Below are positions 10,934 through 52,372 of a stretch of DNA of 64,000 nucleotides, piece by piece (position 1 is the first letter of the stretch; each line of letters begins with the position of its first letter). A program made the position numbers and the translations under genes. The stretch is from Candidatus Gastranaerophilales bacterium (GTDB lineage: Bacteria; Cyanobacteriota; Vampirovibrionia; Gastranaerophilales; Gastranaerophilaceae). The stretch is taken from NCBI GenBank assembly GCA_900768915.1, contig CAAGEQ010000010.1, positions 45,963-109,962 on the forward strand, read 5' to 3'. The notes under the pieces are model-generated. The model did no database searches. It was not told the DNA's origin and saw only the letters and a program-made list of their open reading frames with translations.

Positions 10934-10953
10934 TATTATCTCCAATCATTAAT

Positions 10954-10982
10954 ATAATAGCATTAAATGAACAGTTGTTCAA
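10954..10982 (-). promoter_or_regulatory. Putative arsR promoter (-35 TTGAAC, 17-nt spacer, -10 TATTAT on the minus strand) overlapping operator 1 (TGAACAGTTGTTCA, 10968-10981)
   Basis: Perfect 6-2-6 palindrome TGAACA-GT-TGTTCA; the -35 hexamer lies inside it. Confidence 0.55.
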
Positions 10983-11018
10983 TTGTGTAAATAATGTAAA
11001 ATTTTGTCTATGAAAGGA

Positions 11019-11073
11019 TTGACAATTGAATAGTTGTTCAATTATAATAATAGTACAGTTGAATAATTGTTCA
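11019..11073 (+). promoter_or_regulatory. Putative ATPase-operon promoter (TTGACA 11019-11024, TATAAT 11043-11048) with operators 2 (11027-11040) and 3 (11060-11073)
   Basis: TGAATAGTTGTTCA sits between -35 and -10; TGAATAATTGTTCA sits just downstream of -10. Both are near-copies of operator 1. Confidence 0.55.
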
Positions 11074-11088
11074 ACGAATGGTGGTAAT

Positions 11089-15434: not shown

Positions 15435-15470
15435 ATATTGTAAATATTATTTTATTTTTTAGCAAATTTA

Positions 15471-18612: not shown

Positions 18613-18709
18613 GTTTTCTGTTAGATATACATTAGTTTTGTGTTAGCAATTTTGTTTTATATACAATTTACGATATAATGTGAATGGAATATTGAATTTG
18701 GAGTTTATT

Positions 18710-34144: not shown

Positions 34145-34408
34145 ATATTGATATTAACAAATTTTATAAATCCATGCAAGAAATGTTGTGATTATTTCAA
34201 GGAGTTTGTTTTAATTTTATGATGTTTCGTTGTTTTAATTGTAATGTCGTTATTGGAATTACAAAGGAGGGGTTCGTGAATATAGTTTATCCAATTAAAG
34301 ACAAAGAAAAAATTGCACAAAGTGTTTATTTTTAATGGCTACAAAGAAAGATGACTAAGGTCATACATTACAGAAACAAATTAAAAATAAAATATAAGAA
34401 TTTATATT

Positions 34409-36460: not shown

Positions 36461-36513
36461 ATAGAGATAAACAATACTAAAAATATTTTTTGCTAATATT
36501 TAATCAAGTAGAT

Positions 36514-37218
36514 TTATTCATTTGTATCTGCAACATAAGTGCTTACACTATTTGAATTGTATAAATGTTTTACGATTTTTACCCAATCATTATATTTGAA
36601 AACTCCACCAAGCCAATTATCTAAAATGATTGAATCTGCTTCAACTTTATCATTTTCGTTTTTATCTTTAACTAATACTGCAACGTGATTTGAAATTACA
36701 TCGTCATTTAAAATGCTTGCATATAAAAGTTTTGCATTGTATTTATCTTGTTTTTGGTTTATATCTTCGGCTGTAACTAATGATATATCAGTACAATTGC
36801 CGATTTTGCGTTCTTTCATACGTGCTTTTAAATTTTTACCATAATTATCTTTACTGCGACATTCTTTACGCATTTTATTTATATTATCAGTTAATGTTGA
36901 ATCATAATTTGGTGAAAGAGGGTTTAATACAAGTTGTTGCATTGAACCCGATTTTATTGTACCAAATTCTGAGATAAAATTTTTTCTGCAATCAGATGCA
37001 AAATTTAATTTTTCTGATTTTAATACATAATTTGTACTTAAATCATACTTTTCAACCATATTTTTTAATTCAAGATATTTAGGTGAGGAAAAATATGATG
37101 GAAACGTATTTTGAGTTTCAGAATTTTTAGGTACGAAAATTTGATACTCGGCTGTAGGAGTATCGTATTTTTGAATATTTGAAAAATTATTTATATAAAA
37201 GTTTTCATCTATCCTCAT
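36514..37218 (-). CDS. Orphan 234-aa protein with candidate Cys-His-Asp (papain/transglutaminase-like) residues
   Basis: Ordered IGNCTD, SNHVAVLV, IILDNW in the C-terminal half. Confidence 0.5.
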   Translation of the reverse strand: MRIDENFYINNFSNIQKYDTPTAEYQIFVPKNSETQNTFPSYFSSPKYLELKNMVEKYDLSTNYVLKSEKLNFASDCRKNFISEFGTIKSGSMQQLVLNPLSPNYDSTLTDNINKMRKECRSKDNYGKNLKARMKERKIGNCTDISLVTAEDINQKQDKYNAKLLYASILNDDVISNHVAVLVKDKNENDKVEADSIILDNWLGGVFKYNDWVKIVKHLYNSNSVSTYVADTNE

Positions 37219-37476
37219 AATATAATAAAAAATTTCACACCATAAAAATTGCTAAAACAATAAATCTTTGTAAAATACTTATATCTGTTTAAAATATGTC
37301 TTATTGAAATTAAGTATAAAAATTATTATTTTACCAATTATTAAAATTTAATGTTTTCTGCTTTGAATGTGATAAAAATAAAAATAATTTTAAAATAAAA
37401 AACATTTATTTACATTATTGTAAAAAAATTTCAAAAATTTAATATTTATGCTATATTTATCTCGTAAAGGTGTGGT

Positions 37477-38622
37477 ATGGTGAAGAAGGAAGAATCGTAT
37501 AAGTTTATTGATTTATTTGCAGGGGCAGGTGGTTTGAGTCTTGGTCTAGAACAGGCTGGCTTTGATGTAATTTTTGCAAATGAAATTAATTCTATATGTG
37601 CAGAAACATATTTATATAATAGAAATTTATCAAGTGATCAAATGTTTATAGGTGATATAAAAGATCTTATAAAAAATATTGATAAATATAAAAAATATTT
37701 TAAAGATGTTTCTTTAGTTTGTGGGGGACCACCTTGTCAAGGTTTTTCAATGGCAAATAGACAAAGATTAATAGATGATCCACGTAATAAACTTTATAAA
37801 AGTTATTTAGAATTTTTGAGTAGTATTATGCCTAAATTTTTTATTATGGAAAATGTTAAAGGCATGGTAAATAAAATTGATGAAATTTTAGAAGATTTTT
37901 ATAATAAACTTGGAAATCAATATAATATTGAATATAAAATACTAAATGCGAAAGATTTTGGAATTCCACAAAATAGAGAACGTCTTATTGTTATTGGTAA
38001 TAAAATTGGTATTGAATCAAAAGAGGTATTTGATGAAATTGAAACATATAAAGTTTTTGATAAAGTAACTTTGGGTAAAGCAATATTAGATTTGCCAAAA
38101 TTAAAACCTAATAAATTGAAAAATAATACGGATTTTGAAGATGAAAATTGTGGATATTTCGAAAAAAATTATAACTATACAAAAACAAATTTTTATAATT
38201 TTATAAATAATGGTAGAACTATAACAAAATTATATAATCATAAAAGTAGGTATAACAATGATAGGGATATTAAAATATTTGATTTACTTCCACAAGGTTG
38301 TAATTCTCTGCATGAATCTATAAAAGATATTATGCCTTATCAAAGTAGAAAAAATATTTTTAAAGATAAATATTTTAAATTATCAGAAGATGAAGTTTGT
38401 AAAACAATAACATCTCACATGAAATTTGACTGTAATATGTATATTCATCCTACACAAGCAAGAGGACTATCACCAAGAGAAGCTGCTCGTGTTCAAACTT
38501 TTCCAGATGATTATGTTTTTAAAGGTCCTCAAAATAGTTGGTATATGCAAATTGGTAATGCTGTGCCAGTTAAATTAGCAGAGGTAATAGGGAAATGCAT
38601 AATAAACAAAATAAAGAATTAA
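37477..38622 (+). CDS. DNA (cytosine-5)-methyltransferase, M1
   Basis: Motif I FIDLFAGAGGLSLG, IV GGPPCQGFS, VI ENVKGM, VIII QNRERL, X GNAVPV. Confidence 0.92.
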   Translation: MVKKEESYKFIDLFAGAGGLSLGLEQAGFDVIFANEINSICAETYLYNRNLSSDQMFIGDIKDLIKNIDKYKKYFKDVSLVCGGPPCQGFSMANRQRLIDDPRNKLYKSYLEFLSSIMPKFFIMENVKGMVNKIDEILEDFYNKLGNQYNIEYKILNAKDFGIPQNRERLIVIGNKIGIESKEVFDEIETYKVFDKVTLGKAILDLPKLKPNKLKNNTDFEDENCGYFEKNYNYTKTNFYNFINNGRTITKLYNHKSRYNNDRDIKIFDLLPQGCNSLHESIKDIMPYQSRKNIFKDKYFKLSEDEVCKTITSHMKFDCNMYIHPTQARGLSPREAARVQTFPDDYVFKGPQNSWYMQIGNAVPVKLAEVIGKCIINKIKN

Positions 38623-39704
38623 ATCATTTAGAATTATTTGCCGGAATCGGTGGATTTCGTCTTGCTCTTGAATTATTGGGCAAGGATTTTGGTATAAATA
38701 TGAATTGTATTGGTTATTCCGAGATAGACAATTATGCCACTCAAAGCTATAAGGCGAATTTTGATACTAATAATGATGTTGAAATTGGTGATATTGTGAG
38801 TTTTACAGAAGATAAAACAAATATAAAAAAATTACAAGATTTTTCATTATTGACTGGAGGCTTTCCATGCCAAGCATTTAGTATGATGGGTTTGCAAAAA
38901 GGATTTAAAGATCTAAGAGGAAATGTGTTTTTTAAAATAATTGATATTTTAAAAGTGAAACAGCCTAAAATGATTTTATTAGAAAATGTTAGAAATTTAA
39001 TTTCACATAATAAAGGTAAAACATTTCAGATAATTGTAAATTTAATTAAAAATACTGGATATAATGTTTATTTTGATGTTTTTAATACAAATGATTTTGG
39101 TTTAGCTCAAACGAGAAACAGGGTTTTTATATTTGCTTTTCGTAATGATTTAAATTTACCGGAGGAATTTGATTTTACACAAGAATTTGTTAAAATATCT
39201 TTTGATAAAATAAAAACAAAAACCTCATTACTATTGCAAAACAATGTTTTAGATGTATTAGAAAAAAAAGTTGATGACAAATATTATATTTCGGAGATAC
39301 TTAAACCAACAATATTATCAAATGGAACAAAAAACTTTTCAAGTAAGTCAGAAATAAATCCAATAATAGCAAAACCTCTTACTGCAACTATGGTTAAAAT
39401 GCATAGGGCATGTCAAGATAATTATTTTAGTGATGATTTTATTTATTGTGAAGATCCTGTTAAATATAAGGAAAACGAATTTACAATGAATCAACTATTA
39501 AAGAAAAAAATAAGAAAAATTACTCCACTTGAAGCTTTAAATTTTCAAGGTTTTCCAAAATCATATTTTGAAAAAGCACAAAAAGTTGGAATTAGTAATC
39601 ATCAATTGTACAAACAAGCCGGAAATGCTGTTAGTATAAATACAGTATATGCAATATTGTATTATTTACTTATTGAAAAAGATGTTTTAGGAGTTAAATC
39701 ATAA
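38595..39704 (+). CDS. DNA (cytosine-5)-methyltransferase, M2
   Basis: Motif I LELFAGIGGFRLA, IV GGFPCQAFS, VI ENVRNL, VIII QTRNRV, X GNAVSI. 28-nt overlap with M1. Confidence 0.92.
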   Translation: MHNKQNKELNHLELFAGIGGFRLALELLGKDFGINMNCIGYSEIDNYATQSYKANFDTNNDVEIGDIVSFTEDKTNIKKLQDFSLLTGGFPCQAFSMMGLQKGFKDLRGNVFFKIIDILKVKQPKMILLENVRNLISHNKGKTFQIIVNLIKNTGYNVYFDVFNTNDFGLAQTRNRVFIFAFRNDLNLPEEFDFTQEFVKISFDKIKTKTSLLLQNNVLDVLEKKVDDKYYISEILKPTILSNGTKNFSSKSEINPIIAKPLTATMVKMHRACQDNYFSDDFIYCEDPVKYKENEFTMNQLLKKKIRKITPLEALNFQGFPKSYFEKAQKVGISNHQLYKQAGNAVSINTVYAILYYLLIEKDVLGVKS

Positions 39705-40810
39705 TGGATAAATTTTTTAAATTGCATAGAGAAAAAATAATTGGATATAAGGCTTTAACTGATGCAGATTTGGGGAAAAGTAGAACAAGTCATCAAACAC
39801 ATATTGGTTTATTTGATGATGTTTTAACTTTTTTACCAAATCAACCAAATATTGAAGACACAGCAATGTTTATCTATAATTCTAAAGCGAACATTTTAAG
39901 TTTAAATTTTGATAGAATAGAAAATAAAGATGGTTCTTTCAGAAGTCCTAAAATAAGAGTTGGTGGAAGAGATACTGTATCTATTGTTTCTATAATAAGA
40001 AAAATTACACAAGAAGTAGATAATTCTTTGGTTTGGTATCTATTTTGGTTTGGATTAGAAAGTGGACAGGTAGTTTTTTGGTTATTTAATAATGCATCTC
40101 AAACTTATATTGATATAACTAATTTAGGTTTATCATTAAATGGTAATTCAAAAGGTCGTCTTATTGAAAATGATTCACTCTTTAATAAAATCTTATTATA
40201 TATTGAAGGTAATTTAGATAAATCTACTGAATGTGTTATGAAAGAATTAGAAATAGAAACGCAAATTCCAGGTAAATTAATTACAGAACAAAGAATAAGA
40301 AAATATGATATTGTACGAGCGCAAAAATTATTTACAGAGATTGGTAAAAGAGGAGAAGAATTTGTTGCAGAATATTTTGATAAATTAAAACATAAAAAGT
40401 GTATTACAAATTATAATTGGGTGAATAAATCTTCTGAAAGTGGATACCCATATGATTTTTATTATCAAGATTTATCAGATAATGTTGTATATTTAGATGT
40501 AAAAACAACAAAATTTGATTTTAAACAAAAAATTATATATAGCAATAAAGAAATAGACTTTGCAAGTACTGTTTCAAATGATTGTTATAATATATATCGA
40601 GTTTATAATTTAACTGAAAGTAATGCCAAATTACGAATATGTAAAAATTGTACAACTCATTTCAATTCAATAAATGGGAATATTATAAAATTCCAAGAAA
40701 ATTTAAATAGAATTAATACGGGCGTTCAATCAGTAAATATTGCATTTGAGCCTACAATTTCAAATCTTGTATTTGATAAAGAAATTCAAATAGAAAAAAA
40801 TAGTTATTAA
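39704..40810 (+). CDS. Putative restriction endonuclease (unknown N-terminal domain plus C-terminal DUF3883-like PD-(D/E)xK module)
   Basis: GKRGEEFVAEYF...GYPYDFYY...VYLDVKTTK...YSNKEIDFA...YNIYRVYNL fits the DUF3883 pattern. The TAATG overlap with M2 indicates one operon. Confidence 0.55.
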   Translation: MDKFFKLHREKIIGYKALTDADLGKSRTSHQTHIGLFDDVLTFLPNQPNIEDTAMFIYNSKANILSLNFDRIENKDGSFRSPKIRVGGRDTVSIVSIIRKITQEVDNSLVWYLFWFGLESGQVVFWLFNNASQTYIDITNLGLSLNGNSKGRLIENDSLFNKILLYIEGNLDKSTECVMKELEIETQIPGKLITEQRIRKYDIVRAQKLFTEIGKRGEEFVAEYFDKLKHKKCITNYNWVNKSSESGYPYDFYYQDLSDNVVYLDVKTTKFDFKQKIIYSNKEIDFASTVSNDCYNIYRVYNLTESNAKLRICKNCTTHFNSINGNIIKFQENLNRINTGVQSVNIAFEPTISNLVFDKEIQIEKNSY

Positions 40811-40986
40811 ATTTATTATTGATTTTTTATTTTGAAATTACCATTTTTTATTAAATATTACAGAATTTATTTTAATACAAGTTTGTTAAAATTCTAAAAA
40901 ATATGCAAAATATTTAATAGTATAGTTCTTTAGCATCAGTCTAAAATTTAAAATAGGCTATAATTAGATAAAGTATGATATAAAAA

Positions 40987-41017: not shown

Positions 41018-41090
41018 CTGGGGCGGAAGGATTCGAACCTCCGAGATGCCTGGACCAAAACCAGGTGCCTTACCACTTGGCGACGCCCCA
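41018..41090 (-). tRNA. tRNA-Gln (anticodon UUG)
   Basis: The reverse complement TGGGGCGTCGCCAAGTGGTAAGGCACCTGGTTTTGGTCCAGG...GGTTCGAATCCTTCCGCCCCAG folds as a cloverleaf with anticodon loop TTTTGGT. CCA is not encoded. Confidence 0.9.
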
Positions 41091-41245: not shown

Positions 41246-43216
41246 ATGAATAGTTATTTTATTGGTTTAGCAGCCCTAGTTTTGGGTGGATTGATATCGC
41301 TATTTTGCGTAGAAAAATTAAAGTTTAAAGCAGTTTCTTTGTTTACAGGTATTTCTGCAGTTTGTTGCATGATTCCTGCTATTAATGTACTTTTATCAGG
41401 AAATGTTATATCAAAATCTTTTGATATTAATAACTTATTTGGAACTGTGAATGTAGTTATCGATCCGTTAGCTGCATTTTTTATTGTCGTAATCTCATTT
41501 ATGAGTTTTATGGCTTCAATTTATGCTAACGGTTATATGAAACATTATTTAGACAAAAATATGAACACTTCATCTCATTGTTTGTTCTTAACTCTTTTGT
41601 TTGCATCAATGCTCGCAGTTGTTACTGTTCAAAATGCTTTGATGTTCCTTATCGTTTGGGAAATAATGTCACTTTCTTCTTTCTTCTTAGTTATTTTTGA
41701 AGATAACAAAAAAGAAGTTTTATCAGCAGGTATCAAGTATTTAATCTATATGCACGTATCTGTTATATTTATAATTCTTGCATTTGTTCTTATGGTTGCA
41801 AATTCAGGCAATCTTGATTTCGCATCATTTAAAACAGTTTTAGAAAACAATGCCGGACTTGCTAATCTAGCATTTATATTAGCATTTATTGGTTTCGGTA
41901 TAAAGGCTGGTTTCGTACCATTTCATAACTGGTTGCCAGAAGCACACCCAGCAGCACCTAGTCATGTTTCAGGTGTTATGTCAGGTGTTATGATTAAAAC
42001 TGGTATATATGGTATTCTTAGAGTTCTTACTCTTGTTGGACATCCATCTATTCAAGTTAGTTACTTTGTTTTAATTATTTCTGTTATATCAGCACTTTAT
42101 GGTGTGCTTTATGCAATTACTCAACACGATTTAAAAAGACTTCTTGCATATCACAGTATAGAAAATATTGGTATTATTGGTATTGGTATCGGTACTGGTA
42201 TGTTAGGTTTAGCATACAACTGCATTCCAGTAGCAGTACTTGGGTTTGCTGGTGGTATTCTTCATATTTTGAATCACTCAATCTTTAAAGAATTATTATT
42301 CTTGGCTGCTGGTTCAGTTTATACAAAAACTCATACAAGAAATATAGAAGTTCTTGGTGGTTTGATTAAATCAATGCCAATGACAGCATTATTGTTCCTT
42401 ACTGGTTCAATTGCAATTTGTGGTTTGCCACCATTCAATGGATTTATTAGTGAATTCTTAATATACTTTGGTATGTTAAAAGGTTTGATGATTAATAATC
42501 TTTCAGCATTGATTACATTTATACTAGCAATTGCAGGTCTTGCTCTTGTTGGAACAATGGCTATTCTTTGTTTTACAAAAGCATTTAGTATAATTTTCTT
42601 AGGTGCTCCTAGAGAAAAGGCTGCAGAAGATGTTAGCGAAGATACTACAATATCTTTCATTTTTCCAATGTCAGTGCTTGCAATTCTTACATTGATAATT
42701 GGTGTTTGTCCTCAACATGTATTTAATATTATGATGGCTCCAGTTTCAGTATTTACTGGTGTAGTACAAATGCCTGTTATGGTTGCTTTGATGCAAAATA
42801 TATCTTGGGTTTGTTTAGGGTTGATTGCATTCATCGCAGTTCTTTCAGTATTTAAGTTAGTTATTGAAAACAAATATACTCAACATTGTACTTGGGGTTG
42901 TGGTTTTGATAAGCCAAATAATCATATTCAATATACAGCATCTTCTTATGCTAGTCCATTTTTGTCAATGTTGACACCTTTATTTAAGAAAGTTTTTGAT
43001 ATTAAAAAGCCAAAAGCATTATTTCCAAAAGATGCTCACTTTACTCTTCATATTGAAGATGTTGAAGAAGCATACTTCTTGAAACCGTTTATTAAATCAA
43101 CTGAGAAGTTTTTGGCTAGATTTGAAAAAATACAAAACGGTAATATTCAACAATATATTTTATACGGTTTGATATTCTTAGTATTATCGCTTGTTGGTGT
43201 AGTTTTATTAGGATAG
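41246..43216 (+). CDS. Antiporter-like membrane subunit (HyfB / NuoL-type)
   Basis: 656 aa, polytopic; WLPEAHPAAPSHVSGVMSGVMIKTGIYG is the proton-antiporter M signature. Confidence 0.85.
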   Translation: MNSYFIGLAALVLGGLISLFCVEKLKFKAVSLFTGISAVCCMIPAINVLLSGNVISKSFDINNLFGTVNVVIDPLAAFFIVVISFMSFMASIYANGYMKHYLDKNMNTSSHCLFLTLLFASMLAVVTVQNALMFLIVWEIMSLSSFFLVIFEDNKKEVLSAGIKYLIYMHVSVIFIILAFVLMVANSGNLDFASFKTVLENNAGLANLAFILAFIGFGIKAGFVPFHNWLPEAHPAAPSHVSGVMSGVMIKTGIYGILRVLTLVGHPSIQVSYFVLIISVISALYGVLYAITQHDLKRLLAYHSIENIGIIGIGIGTGMLGLAYNCIPVAVLGFAGGILHILNHSIFKELLFLAAGSVYTKTHTRNIEVLGGLIKSMPMTALLFLTGSIAICGLPPFNGFISEFLIYFGMLKGLMINNLSALITFILAIAGLALVGTMAILCFTKAFSIIFLGAPREKAAEDVSEDTTISFIFPMSVLAILTLIIGVCPQHVFNIMMAPVSVFTGVVQMPVMVALMQNISWVCLGLIAFIAVLSVFKLVIENKYTQHCTWGCGFDKPNNHIQYTASSYASPFLSMLTPLFKKVFDIKKPKALFPKDAHFTLHIEDVEEAYFLKPFIKSTEKFLARFEKIQNGNIQQYILYGLIFLVLSLVGVVLLG

Positions 43217-43220
43217 GAAA

Positions 43221-44153
43221 ATGGAAAAGACAACATTGTTAATAACATTATTTAATATTTTGGTTCTTTTATTAGCACCGTTCTTTGTGATTGGCATTAT
43301 CAAGAAGACTAAGGCTTTTTGGGCTGGTCGTAAAGGTGTTTCAATCTTTCAGCCATTATATGATTTTATTAGATTGTTTAAGAAAGACCAAGTTATTAGT
43401 TTAACAACTTCATGGGTATTTAGATTTGCTCCGATTGTAATTTTCGCAACTACAATTTTTGCAGGTTTATTTGTACCTATGCTTTGTGGAAACTCAATTA
43501 TAAATATTGAGGGTGCATTTGTTATTTTCTCATACATTTTAGGTTTAGGAAAATTCTTTGCTCTTATTTCTGCAATGGATACAGGTAGTAGTTTTGAAGG
43601 TATGGGTGCAAGTAGAGAAGCATGTTTTACTACAATCGTAGAACCAGCATTCTTTATTATGTTAGCATCAATAATTGCTTTGACTGGTAATTATTCTTTT
43701 AAAAGTTTATCAATGATTTTGTCATCATCTGGTACATTTGGTATTTTAATTGCATTCTTGGCAGTTTTAGCATTATTTGTAATGTTGCTAACTGAATGTT
43801 CAAGAGTTCCTGTAGATGACCCTACTACTCACCTTGAATTAACAATGATTCATGAAGTTATGATTTTAGATAATTCTGGTCAAGATTTAGCAGTTATTAC
43901 TTGGGCTGCTGGTATAAAAATGGTTGTATTAGAGGCATTGATTGCAAACTTTATTATTCCATCTAATCTTAGTGTTGGATTATCTGCTGTGTTATTCTTA
44001 GCACTTATTGGGTTGATTGCTGTTATTATTGGTACATTGGAATCAGCAATCGCAAGATTAAGAATGTCACACGTTTTTGAATTTATATTTTCAATGTCAT
44101 CTTTTGCATTGATTATTTTGTCATTAGTTGCAATTAAAATTTATGGAAGTTAG
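43221..44153 (+). CDS. HyfC/HycD/NuoH-like membrane subunit
   Basis: 310 aa, polytopic; loop ECSRVPVDDPTTHLELTMIHE; operon position. Confidence 0.75.
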   Translation: MEKTTLLITLFNILVLLLAPFFVIGIIKKTKAFWAGRKGVSIFQPLYDFIRLFKKDQVISLTTSWVFRFAPIVIFATTIFAGLFVPMLCGNSIINIEGAFVIFSYILGLGKFFALISAMDTGSSFEGMGASREACFTTIVEPAFFIMLASIIALTGNYSFKSLSMILSSSGTFGILIAFLAVLALFVMLLTECSRVPVDDPTTHLELTMIHEVMILDNSGQDLAVITWAAGIKMVVLEALIANFIIPSNLSVGLSAVLFLALIGLIAVIIGTLESAIARLRMSHVFEFIFSMSSFALIILSLVAIKIYGS

Positions 44154-44161
44154 GTTTAATT

Positions 44162-44812
44162 ATGGAAAATGCTCTTATAATTTTATTTGGTTTAACAATG
44201 CTTTATATGGCTGCAACTAGCAGAATTATGGCTCATATCCGTATTCTTGTTGCTCAAGGTATATTATTGTTTTTGATTTGCTATTTCGGAATAGAAAAAA
44301 CATCTATTCTTAATTGTATATTCTTAGCATTTGAAACTTTAATAGTTAAGGCGTGTGTTATTCCGATGTTTTTAAACAAAATTGTGAAAACTACTCATCA
44401 ATATAGAGATGCAGAAGCAAACATTCCTCATTTTTATTGTTTGTTTATCTCTACAGTGATTTTATTCTCAGGATTTTTGATTTCAGATGTTAATTTTCCT
44501 GCTATGAAAATGATTAATCCTGTTTATTTGGGTGTTTCAATTGCTGTTATAATTATTAGTTTGTTGTTGATAACAATTAAGCATAAAATTATTACTAATA
44601 TTGTTGAGTTTATAACAATGGAAAATGGTATATTCTTATTATCATTGGCTGTTGTAAAAGAAATGCCAATAATTGTAAATCTTGGCGTACTTTTAGATTT
44701 ATTTATCGCAGTATTTATTTTAGGACTTCTAGTTAATAGAATTAACAAAGAATTTGAAGGACTTGAAGTTTCTCATTTGTCAGATTTGAAGGATTGTGAA
44801 TATGATGATTAA
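44162..44812 (+). CDS. HyfE-like membrane subunit
   Basis: 216 aa polytopic protein in the HyfE position, of HyfE-like size. Confidence 0.6.
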   Translation: MENALIILFGLTMLYMAATSRIMAHIRILVAQGILLFLICYFGIEKTSILNCIFLAFETLIVKACVIPMFLNKIVKTTHQYRDAEANIPHFYCLFISTVILFSGFLISDVNFPAMKMINPVYLGVSIAVIIISLLLITIKHKIITNIVEFITMENGIFLLSLAVVKEMPIIVNLGVLLDLFIAVFILGLLVNRINKEFEGLEVSHLSDLKDCEYDD

Positions 44813-46241
44813 TTTACTTTTGATATTTCCAATAGTTGCCACATTATTGTTGGTAATTTTAAAAAATAAGTGGCTTAACAATGCAACTTTGATTGTTTAT
44901 GCATTGATGCATTTTGCATTGTCTTGTACTTATTTAGTAAATCCGAGTTTGATTGAAAAAACTCAATATTTTGCGATTGATTCTACAAATTTCATTTTTA
45001 TGATGTTGTTATCGATTGTATTCTTGGCAGTTGCTATATATAACAATGGTTATATGCGACATAGTGAAGCATCTGCGAGAAGTCTTAGTCATTATTCAGG
45101 AATGACATTAATATTTGTTATGGCAATTACAGGTGCTATTTTGAGTAATAATTTAGGACTTTCTTGGGTGTTTATTGAGGCAACAACTTTAGCAAGTGCA
45201 TATCTTATTTGTTTCAATAAAACAAAACATTCTATTGAAGCTGCTTGGAAGTATGTATTTATTTGTTCAATTGGTATTGCATTAGCATTTGTTGGTATTA
45301 TTTTACTTACTATTGCAACTGGTTCTGTGAATACGTTGGCATTCAATGATTTGTATATTCATGCACAATCATTTAATCATTTTTGGTTGAAATTATCATT
45401 TGTATTTATATTATTTGGTATTGGTACAAAGATGGGTTTAGCACCGGTTCATTTTTGGTTGCCTGATGCTCACTCAGAAGCACCAACTCCAATTTCTGCA
45501 CTTTTATCTGCTGCACTTTTGAATTCTGCTTTTCTTATTATTTTAAAAGTTTACAGGATTGTTCTATTGGCAGGTTGTGAAAGTTTTGCAAAAATAATGA
45601 TGTTGGCGATGGGATTTATTTCATTGTTTATTACAGCAGTATTTATTTATTACATTACTAATTATAAAAGAATGCTTGCATATTCTTCTGTTGAAAATAT
45701 GGGTATTTTAGTTATTGGTACTGCATTAGGTGGTATTGCAATGTATGCTGCGATTTTGCATATGATTGCTCATTCATTGATTAAAGCATCATTCTTCTTA
45801 ACTTCTGGTAATGTTTTAGATATATATAATACAAAGAAAATTAAATCTGTTTCAGGTATTTTGAAACTTGATAAAACAACTGGTTGGTTGTGGATATTCT
45901 CATTCTTGGGTATTGCAGCATTTCCACCATCATTGTTATTCATTAGTGAATTTTTGATGATTAAAACAATGGTGGTTCAAAAACAGTTTGTTTTATGCGT
46001 ATTCTTTGTAGTGTTATTAACAATTATTTTATTCGGTTTAGCAAAAACAATTATTAGAATGAGTTTTGGTGAACCAAATGAAAAGAAAATTGATATGTAT
46101 AATGACAATGTGAAGAAATTATCTGTAGGTATGTATTTACCTCAAATAGTTATGTTGCTTTCAGCATTTGCATTAGGTTGTTATGTTCCACCTTGTGTTA
46201 ATAATTTGATTAATGCAGTAATTGTTGGATTTGGGGGTTAA
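44796..46241 (+). CDS. Antiporter-like membrane subunit (HyfF / NuoM/N-type)
   Basis: WLPDAHSEAPTPISALLSAALLNSA; 481 aa. Confidence 0.85.
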   Translation: MNMMINLLLIFPIVATLLLVILKNKWLNNATLIVYALMHFALSCTYLVNPSLIEKTQYFAIDSTNFIFMMLLSIVFLAVAIYNNGYMRHSEASARSLSHYSGMTLIFVMAITGAILSNNLGLSWVFIEATTLASAYLICFNKTKHSIEAAWKYVFICSIGIALAFVGIILLTIATGSVNTLAFNDLYIHAQSFNHFWLKLSFVFILFGIGTKMGLAPVHFWLPDAHSEAPTPISALLSAALLNSAFLIILKVYRIVLLAGCESFAKIMMLAMGFISLFITAVFIYYITNYKRMLAYSSVENMGILVIGTALGGIAMYAAILHMIAHSLIKASFFLTSGNVLDIYNTKKIKSVSGILKLDKTTGWLWIFSFLGIAAFPPSLLFISEFLMIKTMVVQKQFVLCVFFVVLLTIILFGLAKTIIRMSFGEPNEKKIDMYNDNVKKLSVGMYLPQIVMLLSAFALGCYVPPCVNNLINAVIVGFGG

Positions 46242-46243
46242 TA

Positions 46244-47701
46244 ATGGATTGGTATATAGCAAAAAATAATGAATTGATTAATATATCTGATATACCTTGT
46301 TTGGATATTGAAACATTAAGACAAGAAATTATTAAATTAAATAAAAGAGTTGTTGCATTCTTTGGTAAAAGAGAATGGAACGGTGTAAAACTTTATGTTG
46401 CAATGGCTGATGATTCAAAAGGTCAATTGTATGTATCATCTTCATTCTTTGATAATACATTTGAAAAGTATTATGAATCATTAACTCAAGTGATACCTGC
46501 TTTTCACATGTTTGAAAGAGAATTTTATGAAGAATTTGGTATTGAACCATTGCATCACCCTTGGTTAAAACCTGTTCGGGATCACAAAAAAGAATATCCA
46601 TTCTTTGAAGTTGAAGGTGAAGAAGTTCACCAAGTTGGTGTTGGTCCTATTCACGCAGGGGTTATTGAACCTGGACATTTTAGATTTATGTGTAATGGTG
46701 AAAAAGTTTATGACCTAGAAATTAGATTAGGTTATCAATCTAAGGGGATTGAAGATTTAATTGTAAAAGAACCATCAAATCAATTAGCAGAATCTATATG
46801 TGGTGATAGTGTTATTGCATATAATTTGGCCTATTCAAGAGTTATGGAGTCTTTAAAAGGTATAAAAATTTCTAATAAAGCAGAGATTATTAGGTTAATT
46901 GCATTAGAGATGGAAAGATGTGCTATTCATATCGGTGATTTAGGTGCGATTGCTGGTGATACTGCTTATCAAATGGGTGCTGCAATTTTTGGTGTTACAA
47001 GAACTCTCGTAATCAATACAATGTTAGAATTGTGTGGTAGCCGTTTTGGTAGAGGGTTGATTACTGTTGGTGGTGTAAATTATGATATTGATGAACAATT
47101 TGCTGAAAAGATTTTAACTATGTTTAAAAAGGTTTCAGATGATGTTAAAAGAACATTTGCAACTATGTTGAAATCTCCAACTGTTATCTCACGTTTAGAA
47201 AAAACTGGTGTTGTTAGTAACGCAACTGCCTTAGAATTAGGATTAGTTGGTATGGCTGCAAAAGCATCTGGTGTTGAATTGGATTCAAGATTTGATTTTC
47301 ACGAAAAATGGCTTGAAGGTATTGAAGACAAAAAAATTAAAGCCAATGGTGATGTTTATTCTAGAACTAGAGAAAGATATAAAGAAGTGCTTCAATCAAT
47401 ATTTATTATTAAACAATTATTGAAGAAACTTCCTGAATATAAAAATGAACCTTTATGTGTTGATTGTAACAATCAATATAAGCCTGATACAATGGTTATT
47501 TCTATTGTAGAAGGTTGGAGAGGTGAAGTTGTTCATACTGCAATAACTGATGATTATGATAATCTTGCAAGATACAAGGTTAAAGATCCATCATTCAATA
47601 ATTGGTATGGATTAGCAATGGCTGTTAGAAATAATGGAATTTCAGATTTCCCATTGTGTAATAAGAGTTTCAATCTTTCATATTGTGGAAATGATTTATA
47701 A
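46244..47701 (+). CDS. Group-4 [NiFe]-hydrogenase large-subunit / NuoD-like protein with degenerate metal-ligand motifs
   Basis: GPIHAGVIEPGHFRF core. L1 position reads ICGDSVIAY (expected CG.C...H). The C-terminus reads NLSYCGNDL (expected DPC..C..R). Confidence 0.8.
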   Translation: MDWYIAKNNELINISDIPCLDIETLRQEIIKLNKRVVAFFGKREWNGVKLYVAMADDSKGQLYVSSSFFDNTFEKYYESLTQVIPAFHMFEREFYEEFGIEPLHHPWLKPVRDHKKEYPFFEVEGEEVHQVGVGPIHAGVIEPGHFRFMCNGEKVYDLEIRLGYQSKGIEDLIVKEPSNQLAESICGDSVIAYNLAYSRVMESLKGIKISNKAEIIRLIALEMERCAIHIGDLGAIAGDTAYQMGAAIFGVTRTLVINTMLELCGSRFGRGLITVGGVNYDIDEQFAEKILTMFKKVSDDVKRTFATMLKSPTVISRLEKTGVVSNATALELGLVGMAAKASGVELDSRFDFHEKWLEGIEDKKIKANGDVYSRTRERYKEVLQSIFIIKQLLKKLPEYKNEPLCVDCNNQYKPDTMVISIVEGWRGEVVHTAITDDYDNLARYKVKDPSFNNWYGLAMAVRNNGISDFPLCNKSFNLSYCGNDL

Positions 47702-47712
47702 GGGATAATAAA

Positions 47713-48462
47713 ATGTTTGATACTTTAAAATTAAAATTTTTTCAAGGAAATCAATTTATAAAAGATATTGAAAATGCACCAATGAGAGATGCATTTAGAG
47801 GATTTCCTATTTTAAATGATAAAGTTGATTGTTCTGGATTGGAAAATGTTTGTCCAACAGGTGCGTTATCAACTAATCCATTATGTATTGATATGGGTAA
47901 ATGTACATTTTGTGGTAAATGTGCAAGATGTTCAGAAGCAGTTAAATTTACGAATGGATACAAATTAACATCATCTTCTAGAGATAAATTAATTGTTAAA
48001 CCTGATATGACTTATGAAGAATATCAAAAAACTGCAGTTGAAGTTAAAAAAGAAATTGTCAAAGTGTTTGGTAAATCTTTGAAGTTAAGACAAGTTTCAG
48101 CAGGTGGTTGTAATGGCTGCGAAATGGAATTGAATGCTTGTTCAAATTGTAATTTTGATATGGGTAGATTTGGTATTGATTTTGTTGCATCTCCTCGTCA
48201 TGCTGATGGTTTAGTTATTACTGGTCCAATTTCAGAAAATATGGCTTATGCTTTAGAAGATTGTTATAAATCGACACCTGATCCTAAAATAGTAATTTTA
48301 TGTGGTGCTTGTGCTATTAGTGGTGGTATATTTCAACACGCAGACAAATTAAATAGAGAATTTTTGGATAAGTATCCTATAGATTTGTATATTCCAGGTT
48401 GTCCAACTCATCCACTTACATTTATTAATGGTGTGTTGAGTTATATAAAAAATAAGAAGTAA
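47713..48462 (+). CDS. NuoB/HycG-like small subunit fused to an N-terminal ferredoxin-like segment
   Basis: N-terminus CPTGAL...CTFCGKCARC. NuoB part has GGCNGCEMEL, CGACAISGG, PGCPTHP, so all four proximal-cluster Cys are present. Confidence 0.8.
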   Translation: MFDTLKLKFFQGNQFIKDIENAPMRDAFRGFPILNDKVDCSGLENVCPTGALSTNPLCIDMGKCTFCGKCARCSEAVKFTNGYKLTSSSRDKLIVKPDMTYEEYQKTAVEVKKEIVKVFGKSLKLRQVSAGGCNGCEMELNACSNCNFDMGRFGIDFVASPRHADGLVITGPISENMAYALEDCYKSTPDPKIVILCGACAISGGIFQHADKLNREFLDKYPIDLYIPGCPTHPLTFINGVLSYIKNKK

Positions 48463-48477: not shown

Positions 48478-48515
48478 AAAAAACTCTACTAAATTTATTT
48501 AGTAGAGTTTTTTTT
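48478..48515 (+). terminator. Intrinsic terminator after the hyf-like operon
   Basis: 16-bp stem (AAAAAACTCTACTAAA / TTTAGTAGAGTTTTTT), 4-nt loop, T8 tail, 16 nt after the stop. Confidence 0.7.
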
Positions 48516-48529: not shown

Positions 48530-48571
48530 ATAATGTATGAAATAACAAAATTTTGTTATTTCATACATTAT
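48530..48571. repeat. 42-bp perfect palindrome
   Basis: ATAATGTATGAAATAACAAAA|TTTTGTTATTTCATACATTAT checked base by base; A-run upstream and T5 downstream. Confidence 0.9.
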
Positions 48572-48601: not shown

Positions 48602-49843
48602 ATGGTTAAAGCTGTTTCTTTCGGTAATCCGTTAAGAAAATTATATAATTGTTTAAAAAATCAAAAGAAACCGAAATCTCAATATGAACTTTTGGAGAAA
48701 ACTAAAAATTTGCCAGTAAAAAATTTTCCTGCTGGTTCTTGGACTTTGCCTGTTGGGGCTAAGACATTTACTAGGGTTCAGATTGGTAAAAAATTAGATG
48801 AAAGTTATCATAGAGAAGTTGTTACTTTTTATGATGATAAAAATAAAATAATAAAAAGGTGCTTTAAGGGCACTGGTATGAATAAGAAAATTAGAGAGTA
48901 TGAATATGATTTTACATTACCACCAAAAAATACGGATATTGGTGGTGCTTATGGTGTTAATATTAGAAGAATAAAAACAAAAGAGGCATTTCCGGAATCT
49001 TATGATGTATCAAATTATTTTGTATGGACTGATACGGTAAATGAAGAACAGTTCGTTGCAATAATGTTTGATAAAAGGAGAGGAGCAAAACTTGCACGAA
49101 AAATACATATAAATAAAAACGAATACTCTTATGGAGAAGATTTAGATGGGATTAAAGCGACTTGTATTGAGTATCCAATAAATTTAGGTTTTGAACCTAA
49201 AACTAATAAAAAAGTTTTATCTGTTGATATTTCAGTTTCTAATAACAATGTTAACAATACACGAATCAATTCTGAAACAAATGTTAAGGTTGATGAAAAT
49301 GATGTGTTTTTACCTTATCGATTGATGTTAGGTAAAGGAAAACAAGAAAGATTAGCACAATATTTTTTGAATAAAAAAGGGCTTGGAGATAAAGGTATTT
49401 TTATAGAAACTAATCCAGAAAGAGTTCAAGGAAATGCATCTGCGTATTTTTCATCATCTAGTAGGGAAATCGTTTTTAAAAATGTATTATTGGGATATCA
49501 CCCAGTTAGGACTGCTGCTCATGAAGCAGAGCATGCTTATCAGCATTGTCAGGTTGGTCGTTTAGGAAGAGCTGAGACTGCTTATGAAAAAGAGTGTGCA
49601 TTAACAAAAGGTAATCTAACAAATATTTCTGAAATAGAAGAAGCCATAAAATATGCTGATGCAAGAAAATGTTATCCTGATACAATTGGGATAGAAGATT
49701 TAAGTAAATGCAAAGAATATAAAGAAAATTATCTAGAGATTAAAGCAAATGAAGCAGGTGCTAATGCTTTAAAAATTTATGAAGTAGGTAGAACGGCATT
49801 AAAAAATATTTTCAAATTTGTAACTAGTTATAATTCTTTTTAG
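48602..49843 (+). CDS. Orphan protein with an HExxH motif (putative metallopeptidase)
   Basis: TAAHEAEHAYQH in the C-terminal third. N-terminus MVKAVSFGN carries the leader motif. No signal peptide. Confidence 0.5.
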   Translation: MVKAVSFGNPLRKLYNCLKNQKKPKSQYELLEKTKNLPVKNFPAGSWTLPVGAKTFTRVQIGKKLDESYHREVVTFYDDKNKIIKRCFKGTGMNKKIREYEYDFTLPPKNTDIGGAYGVNIRRIKTKEAFPESYDVSNYFVWTDTVNEEQFVAIMFDKRRGAKLARKIHINKNEYSYGEDLDGIKATCIEYPINLGFEPKTNKKVLSVDISVSNNNVNNTRINSETNVKVDENDVFLPYRLMLGKGKQERLAQYFLNKKGLGDKGIFIETNPERVQGNASAYFSSSSREIVFKNVLLGYHPVRTAAHEAEHAYQHCQVGRLGRAETAYEKECALTKGNLTNISEIEEAIKYADARKCYPDTIGIEDLSKCKEYKENYLEIKANEAGANALKIYEVGRTALKNIFKFVTSYNSF

Positions 49844-49935
49844 TTTTTAAACTTCTGTTAAATAATTGTATAAAATAGTTTGTTTGATATAAAATAAAGA
49901 AAAATAGTGGAATAAGATAAAGGGAGAATATTAAT

Positions 49936-51306
49936 ATGGAACGTCAGCATCCTAAAGAACAAGATAAAATTCAACGTAGAAGTAATTTTGATGCAGTTGA
50001 AGAAAATTTTACACCAGAACAAGCATTAGCAGAAGCATCAAGATGCTTGAATTGTAAAAATCCTCGTTGTGTGAAAGGTTGCCCTGTAAATATTCATATT
50101 CCTGAATTTATACATGAAGTAAAAGAAGGTAATTTGGATAAGGCTGGTGAAATTATCCGTCAAACAAGTATGTTACCATCAGTTTGTGGTCGTGTTTGTC
50201 CACAAGAAAGACAATGTGAAGGTAATTGTGTATTAGGTATTAAAGGTGAAGCAGTTGCTATTGGTGCTTTAGAAAGATATGTCGGTGATAATACATCTGC
50301 TAAACAAACTGAAATTAAACCATCTGGTAAAAAGGTTGCTGTAGTTGGTTCAGGTTGTGCAGGTATTACAGCAGCATCTGATTTGAGAAAAGCAGGTCAT
50401 GAAGTTGTTGTATTTGAAGCATTACACAAATTAGGTGGTGTACTTAGATATGGTATTCCTCCATTCCGTTTACCAAGAGTTGTTCTTGATAAAGAAATTG
50501 ATAACTTAAAGGCAATGGGTGTTGAATTTAAGAAAAATGTTATTGTTGGTAAATCAATTACATTAAAACAACTTCAAGAAGATGGTTTTGATGCAATCTT
50601 TATTTGTTCAGGTGCTGGTCTTCCAAAAATGATGAGAATTCCTGGTGAAAACTTGAATGGTGTTTTCTCTGCAAATGAATTCTTGACTCGTGTAAACCTT
50701 ATGCAAGCGAATGATGAAACTACTGCTACACCACTTAAAGTTGGTAAAAAAGTTGCAGTTATCGGTGGTGGTAATGTTGCAATGGACGCAGCTAGAACTT
50801 CTGTTCGTGTAGGTTTTGAAGAAGTTTATATTGTATATAGAAGAACTGAAAAAGAACTTCCTGCTCGTTTGGAAGAAATTAGACATGCCAAAGAAGAAGG
50901 TGTTGTATTCAAATTCTTACATTCACCTGTTGAAATTTTAGATAAAGATGGTTATGTTGCTGGCATGAAGTTTGAGTTATGTGAACTTGGTGAACCTGAT
51001 GAATCAGGACGTAGAAAACCTGTTGGTACTGGCGAATATGTTGTATTAGATGTTGATACTGTAATTGTTGCATTAGGTACTGGTCCTAATCCAATTATTC
51101 AATCTTCAGCACATGATGATGGTATTGATTTCGATACTGATAAGAGAGGCTATTTCACTGTTGATGAAGAAACTCGTGAAACATCTGTTTCAAAAATCTT
51201 TGCAGGTGGTGATGTTGCTCCAGTAGGAACGTCAAATGCTATTAATGCTATGGGTGCAGGTAAGAAAGCAGCAAAAGCAATCAATGAATATCTTGCAAAA
51301 ATATAG
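49936..51306 (+). CDS. NADPH-dependent glutamate synthase small-chain-like oxidoreductase (GltD/SudA family)
   Basis: N-terminal Cys clusters CLNCKNPRCVKGCP and CGRVCPQERQCEGNC; two Rossmann motifs VAVVGSGCAG and VAVIGGGNVAMD. Confidence 0.85.
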   Translation: MERQHPKEQDKIQRRSNFDAVEENFTPEQALAEASRCLNCKNPRCVKGCPVNIHIPEFIHEVKEGNLDKAGEIIRQTSMLPSVCGRVCPQERQCEGNCVLGIKGEAVAIGALERYVGDNTSAKQTEIKPSGKKVAVVGSGCAGITAASDLRKAGHEVVVFEALHKLGGVLRYGIPPFRLPRVVLDKEIDNLKAMGVEFKKNVIVGKSITLKQLQEDGFDAIFICSGAGLPKMMRIPGENLNGVFSANEFLTRVNLMQANDETTATPLKVGKKVAVIGGGNVAMDAARTSVRVGFEEVYIVYRRTEKELPARLEEIRHAKEEGVVFKFLHSPVEILDKDGYVAGMKFELCELGEPDESGRRKPVGTGEYVVLDVDTVIVALGTGPNPIIQSSAHDDGIDFDTDKRGYFTVDEETRETSVSKIFAGGDVAPVGTSNAINAMGAGKKAAKAINEYLAKI

Positions 51307-52372
51307 TATAAAAGTTTTAACAATATTTTGTATAATACAGGCATTATTTTTGATGCCTGTATTTGCAATTGATTTGGATTCTACTGTTAATGATAGTTCA
51401 AGAAAGAATTATACAGTTCCTAAAAAAACTGTGCAACCAAATATTGAAACGACAAAACAAATTACAAATACTGTTCAATCTGGTGCAAAATCTGTCATAG
51501 AAGTTGTACCACAAACACCAGTATCTACTCAAGTAATAGAAAAAACAGTTTTACCAGCAGTTCCAGCATTGCCTCAAAAGGCATATAGTTCTACTGCTGC
51601 TCATACAAATACTCAATATAGCGGTAAAGTTCCTAATGCTGATGCAATTATTCCTTGTTCAAACATAAAAGTTGGTGATTTGATTATTGATGAATCTTAT
51701 GCAAAGAAAAAGCCTACTATTGTAACAACATCAAAACAAAAAACTGTTACTTATCAACCATCTAAAAAAACAATTGCTAGTGCAAACTATCGTTATGTAA
51801 AATTACCACAAGGTACTCAAATTAGAGCGATTAATTCTTCTAAAATTACAGATTATATGTTCGAGGGACAAAAATTAACGTTCTTGACTACTCAAGAAAT
51901 TTATACTCCGTATTTTAGAATTCCTGCAAAAACGAAATTAACAGCAAAAATAGTTGATTCTCATAGACCTCAAATGTCTTGTAATGGTGGTTTGGTTGCA
52001 TTTAGAATCGTTTCAGCACAGATTAATGGTTATACTCAACCATTAAATGCTGGTATTATAAAAATAAAAACAGATAGAGTTTATTTTAGTAATTTGAAAG
52101 GTAATCATACATATTGGAAAACGACCTGTAAAAAGGCTAAATGGGGACAGAAAATATTTACAAAATGGTCTAGAACATCTTCTAAGTTGGCATCAAAAGG
52201 ACCTGCAATAATATTGTCACCATTCCCTTATTTGGGTGGTTGTGTATTGGCTGCTGCAAGTACAGTAACTTCACCAGTTACTGCATTGTTAGGTAAAGGT
52301 GGAAGTCTTGTTGTACCAGCAAATACTACGTTTACTATAAAATTATATGAGGATGCGAAGATAAGATACTAA
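51284..52372 (+). CDS. Secreted hypothetical protein
   Basis: The internal ATG gives a signal peptide MNILQKYSIKVLTIFCIIQALFLMPVFA|ID. The ORF-track start at 51236 would lie deep inside gltD. Confidence 0.55.
   Translation: MNILQKYSIKVLTIFCIIQALFLMPVFAIDLDSTVNDSSRKNYTVPKKTVQPNIETTKQITNTVQSGAKSVIEVVPQTPVSTQVIEKTVLPAVPALPQKAYSSTAAHTNTQYSGKVPNADAIIPCSNIKVGDLIIDESYAKKKPTIVTTSKQKTVTYQPSKKTIASANYRYVKLPQGTQIRAINSSKITDYMFEGQKLTFLTTQEIYTPYFRIPAKTKLTAKIVDSHRPQMSCNGGLVAFRIVSAQINGYTQPLNAGIIKIKTDRVYFSNLKGNHTYWKTTCKKAKWGQKIFTKWSRTSSKLASKGPAIILSPFPYLGGCVLAAASTVTSPVTALLGKGGSLVVPANTTFTIKLYEDAKIRY

Follow-up and report, generated by a model that had tools for sequence, protein, structure and literature searches.

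Six plus-strand genes at positions 41246-48462 of a 64,000-nucleotide stretch of DNA (the window) from a gut Gastranaerophilales (Melainabacteria) genome with a G+C content of about 29% (GenBank assembly GCA_900768915.1, contig CAAGEQ010000010.1) encode, in the order HyfB-, HyfC-, HyfE-, HyfF-, HyfG- and HyfI-like, what their sequences support as an energy-converting hydrogenase-related (Ehr) complex, i.e., a minimal six-subunit relative of the group 4 membrane hydrogenases and complex I. It is near certain that this complex is a member of the Ehr family that is unable to bind a nickel-iron (Ni-Fe) center, and because that cofactor cannot be bound, it is not a conventional hydrogenase. As to the reaction it carries out, we somewhat favor an oxidoreductase, distinct from the [NiFe] hydrogenases, that is linked to ferredoxin and translocates ions.

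The name Ehr reportedly derives from the Geobacter sulfurreducens genes GSU0739-45 (Coppi), and the family is said to have been defined by Marreiros et al. in 2013, the criteria having been taken here by way of citing papers. In the literature, Ehr complexes are related to group 4 hydrogenases (near group 4f), lack the CxxC motifs and are of undetermined function (PMC6349859, PMC10284858, PMC7304191). The window has a large subunit that is homologous to those of group 4 and is without the Ni-Fe-binding cysteines, and it has the complete Ehr gene set (NuoL-like, NuoH-like, HyfE-like, a second antiporter-like, large and small subunits) in one cluster, the order of which was the same in about 60 loci, Geobacter and Desulfuromonadales among them. 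The Ehr complex of Geobacter has the same subunit types as the window operon, and a Geobacter sp. locus has the same order and motifs at 42% identity. In G. sulfurreducens grown on formate, proteomics found every subunit to be highly abundant (PMC7894505). The Ehr assignment proposed in the initial annotation was thus supported by membership of a cysteine-less family, by the Geobacter gene set and by a neighbor-joining (NJ) tree.

The large subunit and its family

Searches of Protein Data Bank (PDB) sequences with HMMER showed the large subunit to be closer to MbhL (E = 4e-42) and HycE (8.5e-37) than to Nqo4 of complex I (2e-24), and it had no match to the [NiFe] hydrogenase large-subunit Pfam family. 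From an alignment by eye, it had been proposed that three of the four Ni-Fe cysteines are gone and the first alone is kept, and this was borne out by HMMER alignments with MbhL and HycE and by a MAFFT alignment with E. coli HycE/HyfG, neither program placing cysteines at all four ligand positions. In the HMMER alignments, A-E-S-I-C-G-D-S-V-I-A-Y lies opposite A-E-R-M-C-G-I-C-S-F-S-H of MbhL and D-R-V-C-G-I-C-G-F-A-H of HycE, and the C-terminal F-N-L-S-Y lies opposite L-D-P-C-Y of HycE. The MAFFT alignment put Cys, Ser, Ser and Gly in the columns of HycE C241, C244, C531 and C534, so that the first ligand is kept, the second and third have become Ser and the fourth Gly, with a Cys one position before the fourth. 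The L1 motif of group 4 (R-x-C-G-x-C-x-x-x-H) therefore has Ser for its second Cys and Tyr for its His, and the L2 motif (D-P-C-x-x-C-x-x-R) has Ser and Gly in its ligand columns. The coordinates first assigned to the degenerate L1 motif (46790-46822) were correct, while the L2 motif starts at 47672 and not at 47675. Since the large subunit stops directly after L2, with no C-terminal extension, there is no peptide left for an endopeptidase to cleave.

An AlphaFold2 model of the large subunit, built on 26 family members, had a predicted local distance difference test score (pLDDT) of 89.2 and a predicted TM-score (pTM) of 0.91, and the best Foldseek match to it was HycE in the formate hydrogenlyase structure (7z0s_E, TMq 0.87), followed by E. 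coli NuoCD. With high confidence, the fold is predicted to be that of HycE and NuoCD.

Genes for the assembly of a Ni-Fe center were sought as well. E. coli HypA-F, HycI, HycH and HyfJ had no tblastn match in the window or in 22 related loci, and no gene for a formate dehydrogenase or for maturation was found in Pfam and NCBIfam scans of 35 further open reading frames (ORFs) of the window, some of which were scanned against one of the two libraries; the remaining window ORFs were covered by that tblastn alone, which held no formate dehydrogenase query. Within this coverage, the statement in the initial annotation that no hyp, endopeptidase or formate dehydrogenase genes flank the operon stands. 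The 35 scanned ORFs are ordinary chromosomal genes.

The same large-subunit features characterize a widespread family. Of 1.84 billion cluster representatives scanned, 525 matched at E <= 1e-30, all in distinct 50%-identity clusters, and among GTDB species genomes at least 593 species representatives in more than 10 phyla had matching loci, these phyla and groups including Bacteroidota, Spirochaetota, Lentisphaerota, Planctomycetota, Verrucomicrobiota, Omnitrophota, Desulfobacterota (Geobacter, Desulfuromonadales, Desulfovibrio), Riflebacteria, Ignavibacteria, Gemmatimonadota and Acidobacteriota. Only 5 of the 150 best representatives had four Cys at the ligand columns, the others reading A/S/C, S/T, S and G. 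The family signatures are A-E-x-I-[A/S/C]-G-D-[S/T]-x-[I/V]-[A/G]-[H/Y] in the N-terminal part and ...F-P-L-C-N-K-S-F-[N/D]-L-S-Y-[C/S/A]-G-x-D-L at the C-terminus, with G187, D188, S479, G482, D484 and L485 nearly invariant. At the first-Cys position Ala or Ser is commonest, and most Ehr large subunits have His where the window has Tyr; the retained Cys and the Tyr are typical of Gastranaerophilales only, and they are no sign of a residual metal site. Copies are also borne on plasmids in the aerobes Variovorax and Allomeiothermus. Plasmid 3 of Variovorax sp. PBL-E5 (L009) has two paralogous six-gene cassettes (3872-11156 and 14568-19395) about 3.4 kb apart, one with a fused ferredoxin-NuoB small subunit of 249 amino acids (aa), as in the window, and the other annotated as hyfB/hyfF-like.

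An NJ tree (363 columns, 116 sequences, 100 bootstraps) placed the family beside four-Cys hydrogenases and apart from HycE/HyfG, MbhL and NuoCD. The cysteine-less family and its nearest four-Cys hydrogenases formed a clade in 100/100 replicates to the exclusion of those three, monophyly of the cysteine-less set alone was weak (59/100), and Hyq-like sequences formed a separate clade (96/100). According to the literature the nearest four-Cys hydrogenases are group 4f, and Ehr adjoins 4f in published trees (PMC10284858). No curated NCBIfam model attained its cutoff for the window large subunit, for two relatives or for the nearest four-Cys hydrogenases, the last having only NuoD/FpoD matches under threshold.

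Compared with the window, three same-species contigs had 21-22 synonymous and 2-3 non-synonymous codon differences over the six genes, and because synonymous differences far exceed the non-synonymous ones, the operon is under purifying selection. An identical large subunit occurred in 174 blocks of the assembly collection, 22 of whose carrying contigs were examined; identical and near-identical proteins come from human gut metagenomes, and the closest named relatives, at 59-82% identity, belong to metagenome-assembled genomes of Candidatus Gastranaerophilales/Melainabacteria.

Electron-transfer domains and membrane arm

At 249 residues, the small subunit is longer than a plain NuoB (about 175). 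Alignments with MbhJ, HycG and Nqo6 cover its residues 107-244 or, more narrowly, 113-243, and the proximal-cluster cysteines of those proteins fall opposite C133, C136, C200 and C230, so that all four are kept. The initial annotation was correct about these cysteines but had taken the protein to be a plain HyfI, and that part has to be revised, as a ferredoxin domain is fused to its N-terminus. In this four-Cys small subunit and in its NuoH-like and NuoL-like membrane subunits, the operon agrees with group 4 systems.

The first 110 or so residues constitute a ferredoxin domain like that of HycF, HyfH and NuoI. Residues of about 28-94 match E. coli HycF and HyfH (the NuoI-type subunit with 2x[4Fe-4S]), residues 24-147 have weak NuoI/HycF NCBIfam matches, and a tblastn search with E. 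coli HycF gave an E value of 1.5e-4 in the window and 3e-12 in a relative (L021). The ferredoxin match, weak in the window, is strong in relatives, and the HyfH that is apparently missing from the operon is fused to the N-terminus of HyfI. One complete [4Fe-4S] motif is present, C47(P), C64, C67 and C70, and it is 98-100% conserved among 57 aligned family members. The second-cluster cysteines are present in only about 55% of the same 57, and at these positions the window has C40, L43 and C73/S74; because the positions of the second motif are degenerate, a single complete ferredoxin-type motif is left in the Gastranaerophilales lineage.

In a Bacteroidota subclade of 16 loci, D, C, D and N replace the four proximal-cluster cysteines, and both this subclade and Allomeiothermus retain the large-subunit signature and the conserved ferredoxin-type cluster. 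The concerted change of Cys to Asp, Asp and Asn in Bacteroidota might create a different metal site. With the proximal cysteines lost, electron delivery to the pocket is either dispensable in these lineages or the function has changed there, and the loss keeps alive the alternative of a redox-independent transporter, which is weighed below. Although located outside the window, these variants are the most interesting lead of this analysis. The small-subunit motifs of the Bacteroidota loci (L028, L030, L033, L034, L036, L038, L039, L041-L043, L051, L054, L056, L057, L061 and L071) read G-G-D-N-S-C-E, G-T-D-A-I-S-G-G and P-G-N-P, and the small subunit on the Allomeiothermus silvanus plasmid (L010, 10260-11132) has none of the four proximal-cluster cysteines.

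In the membrane arm, the HyfB-like subunit retains E139 in transmembrane helix (TM) 5, K220 in TM7, K251 in TM8 and E403 in TM12, as in E. coli HyfB. The HyfF-like subunit has E128, K212, N243 and E385, a pattern identical to that of E. coli HyfF, including the Asn in place of the TM8 Lys, and the NuoH-like subunit retains the equivalents of E. coli NuoH R46, D63, E157, D213, E220, D223 and E228. Judged by these residues, the machinery for coupled ion movement looks intact, and the arm would be active.

Relatives and candidate functions

A complex of this kind has been described before from the same group of organisms. In Di Rienzi et al. 2013 (eLife; PMC3787301), gut Melainabacteria are reported to have a six-subunit "NiFe hydrogenase" that lacks the motifs, and to be fermenters without Rnf, formate dehydrogenase or a respiratory chain. 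In Matheus Carnevali et al. 2019 (PMC6349859), Ehr is reported from four Melainabacteria genomes, with a possible pairing of formate dehydrogenase and Ehr in sister lineages. The window operon is almost certainly the complex of these two studies, as organism group, subunit number and missing motifs are the same and nothing substantive differs, although neither of them describes individual residues, notes the fused ferredoxin domain or assigns a function. Since it has been in the literature for gut Melainabacteria since 2013, the complex is not novel. New here are the family signature, which is shared with Hyq, the fused and half-degenerate ferredoxin domain, the lineage-specific Cys and the variants without a proximal cluster, some of which may already be contained in Marreiros et al. 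2013. Reports by Soo et al. may concern the same cysteine-less complex, mis-annotated as a hydrogenase.

Hydrogenase 4 (HyfA-J) and hydrogenase 3/formate hydrogenlyase (HycB-G; PDB 7Z0S) of E. coli have homologous B, C, E, F, G and I subunits in the same order, and the hydrogenase-type CxxC of the small subunit and the HyfB/HyfF charge patterns are common to them and the window. In contrast to them, the window has no Ni-Fe ligands, no C-terminal processing peptide and no HyfA, HyfD, HyfJ, HyfR or FocB, its HyfH is reduced and fused to HyfI, and there are no formate dehydrogenase or hyp genes nearby. Complex I (NDH-1) shares with the window the same folds, the NuoCD fusion (as in E. coli), the NuoH loop charges and antiporter-like subunits. 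In T. thermophilus Nqo4, Y87 of the R-x-D-Y motif is the Tyr that binds the quinone head group, and in NuoB of complex I tandem Cys ligate cluster N2. Neither of these Q-module features was found in the window: when transferred through the hydrogenase/NuoD alignment, the Y87 position is Gly187, and the NuoB domain is of the CxxC type (GGCNGCE) instead of having the tandem Cys. The operon is also without NuoA, J, K, N and the N-module.

Clustering of the ORFs of 83 loci (80 GTDB loci, two plasmids and the window) showed the six cassette genes, in the order L-H-E-L-D-B, to be the recurrent unit. A conserved redox partner was rejected, as the 83 loci had no recurrent gene for a formate dehydrogenase, a Hyp protein, a NuoEF module or any other oxidoreductase. 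The sole extra recurrent gene, found upstream in 20 non-melainabacterial loci and, unlike in those Ehr loci, not in the window, encodes a regulator with a helix-turn-helix (HTH) and a PTS-EIIA-like part, which suggests that the cassette is regulated by a phosphotransferase-type signal in those 20 loci. The regulator, of about 235 aa, has its HTH at the N-terminus and a G-I-A-I-P-H motif in the EIIA-like domain; it lies directly upstream of the cassette, and the loci that bear it include L019, L021, L022, L024, L037, L044, L047, L048, L052, L073 and L088.

In the reading that we favor, the fused HycF-like domain would be the docking site of a soluble low-potential carrier, either reduced ferredoxin from fermentation or another, and the lack of a conserved partner oxidoreductase across about 80 loci from more than 10 phyla fits such a soluble carrier. 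The single intact [4Fe-4S] cluster of that domain would hand electrons to the proximal one in the NuoB-like domain, the ligands of both being in place, and from there they would go to a substrate in a remodeled polar pocket of the large subunit, at its interface with the small and NuoH-like subunits. The pocket would be lined by G187-D188-S189 and S479-Y480-C481-G482, with E142 and R426 retained, and its chemistry would drive the movement of H+ or Na+ through the NuoH-like, HyfE-like and two antiporter-like subunits, in which the charged residues are kept. The reverse reaction is conceivable, with the membrane potential being used to make reduced ferredoxin. For the acceptor, a first guess would be a small oxidant, quinone-like or otherwise, bound in the pocket that formerly took the Ni-Fe center; protons are excluded as the acceptor for the canonical mechanism. 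In support of a ferredoxin-linked pump, fermenting Melainabacteria without Rnf, as described in PMC3787301, need some other means of membrane energization or another source of reduced ferredoxin.

Several points weigh against this proposal. In the Gastranaerophilales lineage, one of the two clusters of the ferredoxin domain is gone, and, as the Bacteroidota subclade and Allomeiothermus have replaced the proximal-cluster cysteines but kept the large-subunit signature, the family may be able to do without electron delivery to the pocket. The Gly at the position of the quinone-binding Tyr speaks against a quinone acceptor in particular, as does the report, in PMC3787301, that gut Melainabacteria have no quinones or terminal reductases. 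Lastly, genetics ties the related Hyq complex to H2.

That tie underlies the alternative of a non-canonical H2 enzyme with a site other than a Cys4-bound Ni-Fe center, which we consider improbable. Hyq, the "endo-hydrogenase" of Azorhizobium caulinodans (hyqRBCEFGI; Ng et al. 2009, Sprecher et al. 2012), has the same B-C-E-F-G-I order and a fused NuoC::D large subunit (about 500 aa), and Hyq-like large subunits of Bradyrhizobium and Burkholderia, from clusters of that order, carry the same Cys-less signature, with an ...S-Y-x-G-H-D-L end; a later analysis likewise has hyq without canonical Ni-Fe ligands. Deletion of hyq in A. caulinodans altered the growth of diazotrophic cultures, the abstracts credit Hyq with H2 recycling and evolution in vivo, reported for A. 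caulinodans alone, and for the window organism, which ferments, H2 would be a natural electron sink. However, the case for Hyq, which occurs in aerobic or microaerophilic diazotrophs and is a proposed H2:quinone oxidoreductase, has been made by genetics and physiology only, and its catalytic site is speculative in the words of its own authors. The Hyq large subunit is about 32% identical to that of the window and falls in the separate clade, the small subunit of about 175 aa consists of NuoB alone, without the ferredoxin domain, and Hyq has hyqR upstream, where the window has a tRNA-Gln and a methylase island and no regulator. We know of no chemistry by which H2 is formed without a Ni-Fe or Fe-Fe cofactor. 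Other authors hold that Ehr proteins cannot interact with H2 (PMC10284858, PMC7304191). We give equally little weight to a sulfane-sulfur (polysulfide or persulfide) reductase like MBS/Mbx, in which sulfane sulfur would take up ferredoxin electrons right at the proximal [4Fe-4S] cluster, with coupled ion pumping. Its appeal is that, among hydrogenase-like complexes with an incomplete Ni-Fe site, Mbx/MBS of Pyrococcus furiosus is to our knowledge the only one with an established substrate. PMC6349859 counts Mbx among the hydrogenase-related complexes, and in other strains of the window species the operon is preceded by a gene for a 793-aa CoA-disulfide-reductase/rhodanese/TusA/DsrE fusion of a sulfur-trafficking type, but in the window that gene is replaced by a methylase island, and it is not in relatives of about 70% identity. 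Furthermore, MbsL (6u8y_L) was not among the PDB matches of the large subunit at E <= 1e-10, compared with 4e-42 for MbhL, the small subunit matched MbsJ (6u8y_J) at 2.6e-16 and MbhJ at 1e-30, with MbsJ ranking below the complex I NuoB proteins, and the six subunits of the window operon contrast with 13, including an Mrp-like module, in MBS.

The variants without a proximal cluster lend themselves to another explanation, unlikely in our judgment, in which the complex is a redox-independent or merely redox-gated cation or proton transporter (Mrp-like) and the peripheral arm a structural or regulatory cap. The proximal-cluster cysteines were lost repeatedly with the large-subunit signature kept, there is no conserved redox partner, the cassette occurs in strict anaerobes and aerobes alike, and 20 loci have the HTH-EIIA regulator upstream, PtsN-type EIIA proteins being linked to ion homeostasis. 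Yet the window keeps all four proximal cysteines and one ferredoxin cluster, the latter nearly universal in the family, and the pocket residues are among the most conserved of the protein, which would not be expected of a passive cap. A bona fide group 4 [NiFe] hydrogenase (of the Hyf/FHL-2 or Ech type) that was misread by eye, or a decaying pseudo-operon, has a negligible chance of being correct and is refuted at the level of sequence analysis. The overall similarity and gene order are indeed like those of hyf, and some databases label relatives "hydrogenase"; nevertheless, HMMER and MAFFT concur that Cys is missing from three of the four ligand positions, the NCBIfam Hyf equivalog scores are all under cutoff, the C-terminal extension is missing and hyp, hycI and fdh genes are not nearby, while decay is excluded by strong purifying selection and hundreds of conserved relatives. 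A bolder idea, which we hold to be doubtful, is that Ehr and Hyq carry out catalysis without any Ni-Fe cofactor, as a new catalytic class of ferredoxin-driven ion pump in a major gut lineage, or have drifted to a redox-independent transporter. In one version, by analogy with MBS, catalysis might take place at the proximal [4Fe-4S] cluster in an Asp/Ser/Tyr pocket, with a substrate that might even be protons or H2; in the other, the cluster-less complexes of Bacteroidota and Allomeiothermus point to a family drifting from a redox pump to a redox-independent transporter.

The window holds no new kind of system but a clean, selected example of a family whose very common cassettes routinely carry the wrong annotation, "hydrogenase" or "NADH-quinone oxidoreductase subunit C". 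In gut Gastranaerophilales, candidates for membrane energization or ferredoxin balancing are very few, the complex among them, and for that reason its substrate decides how energy is conserved in these widespread human-gut bacteria, and also whether they count as H2 producers through the Ehr complex.

Operon layout and genomic neighborhood

The coordinates of the operon and its features are collected in the table. The ORFs and the Pfam and NCBIfam matches agree with the initial annotation that six genes follow one another in hyf-like order with short gaps or an overlap, the spacers being of 2-11 nt and the single overlap of 11-17 nt. The range of the overlap goes with the start of the HyfF-like gene, which gene callers place at 44802 (479 aa). 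None of the six proteins attained the curated cutoff of an NCBIfam Hyf equivalog model, the top matches of the HyfB-like and HyfF-like subunits being HyfB (571.8 bits, cutoff 667) and HyfF (328.7 bits, under cutoff). The HyfE-like subunit had no Pfam match and no PDB sequence match at E <= 1, and it is kept in the same position at 55 related loci.

Table. Features of the Ehr-type operon, in window coordinates
Feature	Position	Strand	Details
HyfB/NuoL-like antiporter-like membrane subunit, EhrA-type	41246..43216	+	656 aa; Pfam Proton_antipo_M + Proton_antipo_N
HyfC/HycD/NuoH-like membrane subunit	43221..44153	+	310 aa; Pfam NADHdh, 1.4e-31
HyfE-like small membrane subunit	44162..44812	+	216 aa; NCBIfam NF008556 (hydrogenase 4 membrane subunit), 1.1e-18, under cutoff
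HyfF/NuoM-N-like antiporter-like membrane subunit	44796..46241	+	481 aa from GTG 44796; Pfam Proton_antipo_M
Large subunit, NuoC-NuoD fusion, HyfG/HycE-like, EhrL-type	46244..47701	+	485 aa; Pfam Complex1_30kDa + Complex1_49kDa
Degenerate L1 motif E-S-I-C-G-D-S-V-I-A-Y (E183-Y193)	46790..46822	+	translation, alignments
Degenerate L2 motif N-L-S-Y-C-G-N-D-L (N477-L485), extreme C-terminus	47672..47698	+	translation, alignments
Small subunit, EhrS-type: HycF/NuoI-like ferredoxin domain + NuoB/HyfI-like domain	47713..48462	+	249 aa; Pfam Oxidored_q6 at residues 133-242
Ferredoxin-like domain within small subunit	47794..47994	+	tblastn with E. coli HycF; Cys conservation
Proximal [4Fe-4S] ligands C133, C136 (GGCNGCE), C200 (GACAISGG), C230 (PGCP)	48109..48402	+	alignment
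Two long AT-rich hairpins with T-runs, 16 and 19 bp stems	48478..48513 and 48530..48571		directly 3' of last stop codon

The two hairpins are the probable end of the operon. Downstream of them, at 48602-52372, are genes for a 413-aa protein of no family, a 456-aa iron-sulfur flavoprotein of the NADPH-dependent glutamate synthase/NfnB/SudA type (GltA/NfnB-like; TIGR01316, 525 bits, above cutoff) and a 339/378-aa protein without a match. These genes were rejected as members of the system because they are conserved within the species only, relatives at about 70% identity carrying unrelated neighbors there, and because two strong hairpins lie between.

Directly upstream of the operon is a strain-variable island (34221-40980), next to a tRNA-Gln, that in the window encodes two type II C5-cytosine methyltransferases, a NOV_C/PDC-S36-like protein and two proteins of no family (683 and 234 aa). 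Three same-species contigs that are 99.5% identical on both sides have instead the 793-aa fusion (CoADR-rhodanese-TusA-DsrE) and a 204-aa protein of the Nitro_FeMo-Co family. The fusion gene was rejected as a partner of the operon and, because it is absent from the window and from relatives, supports a role in sulfur metabolism weakly.

A promoter scan was uninformative in the AT-rich DNA of the window, with 53 sites against 52.7 expected, and in the upstream intergenic region the Rfam matches other than the tRNA were far under gathering scores. That tRNA-Gln (anticodon TTG, 41018-41090, minus strand), just upstream of the operon, is the single tRNA of the window, and beside it, at 41133-41106, is an 11/12 match to the sigma-70 consensus. 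A near-identical copy of the tRNA-Gln (82% over 122 nt) is found elsewhere in a relative (L005, 13950-14070).

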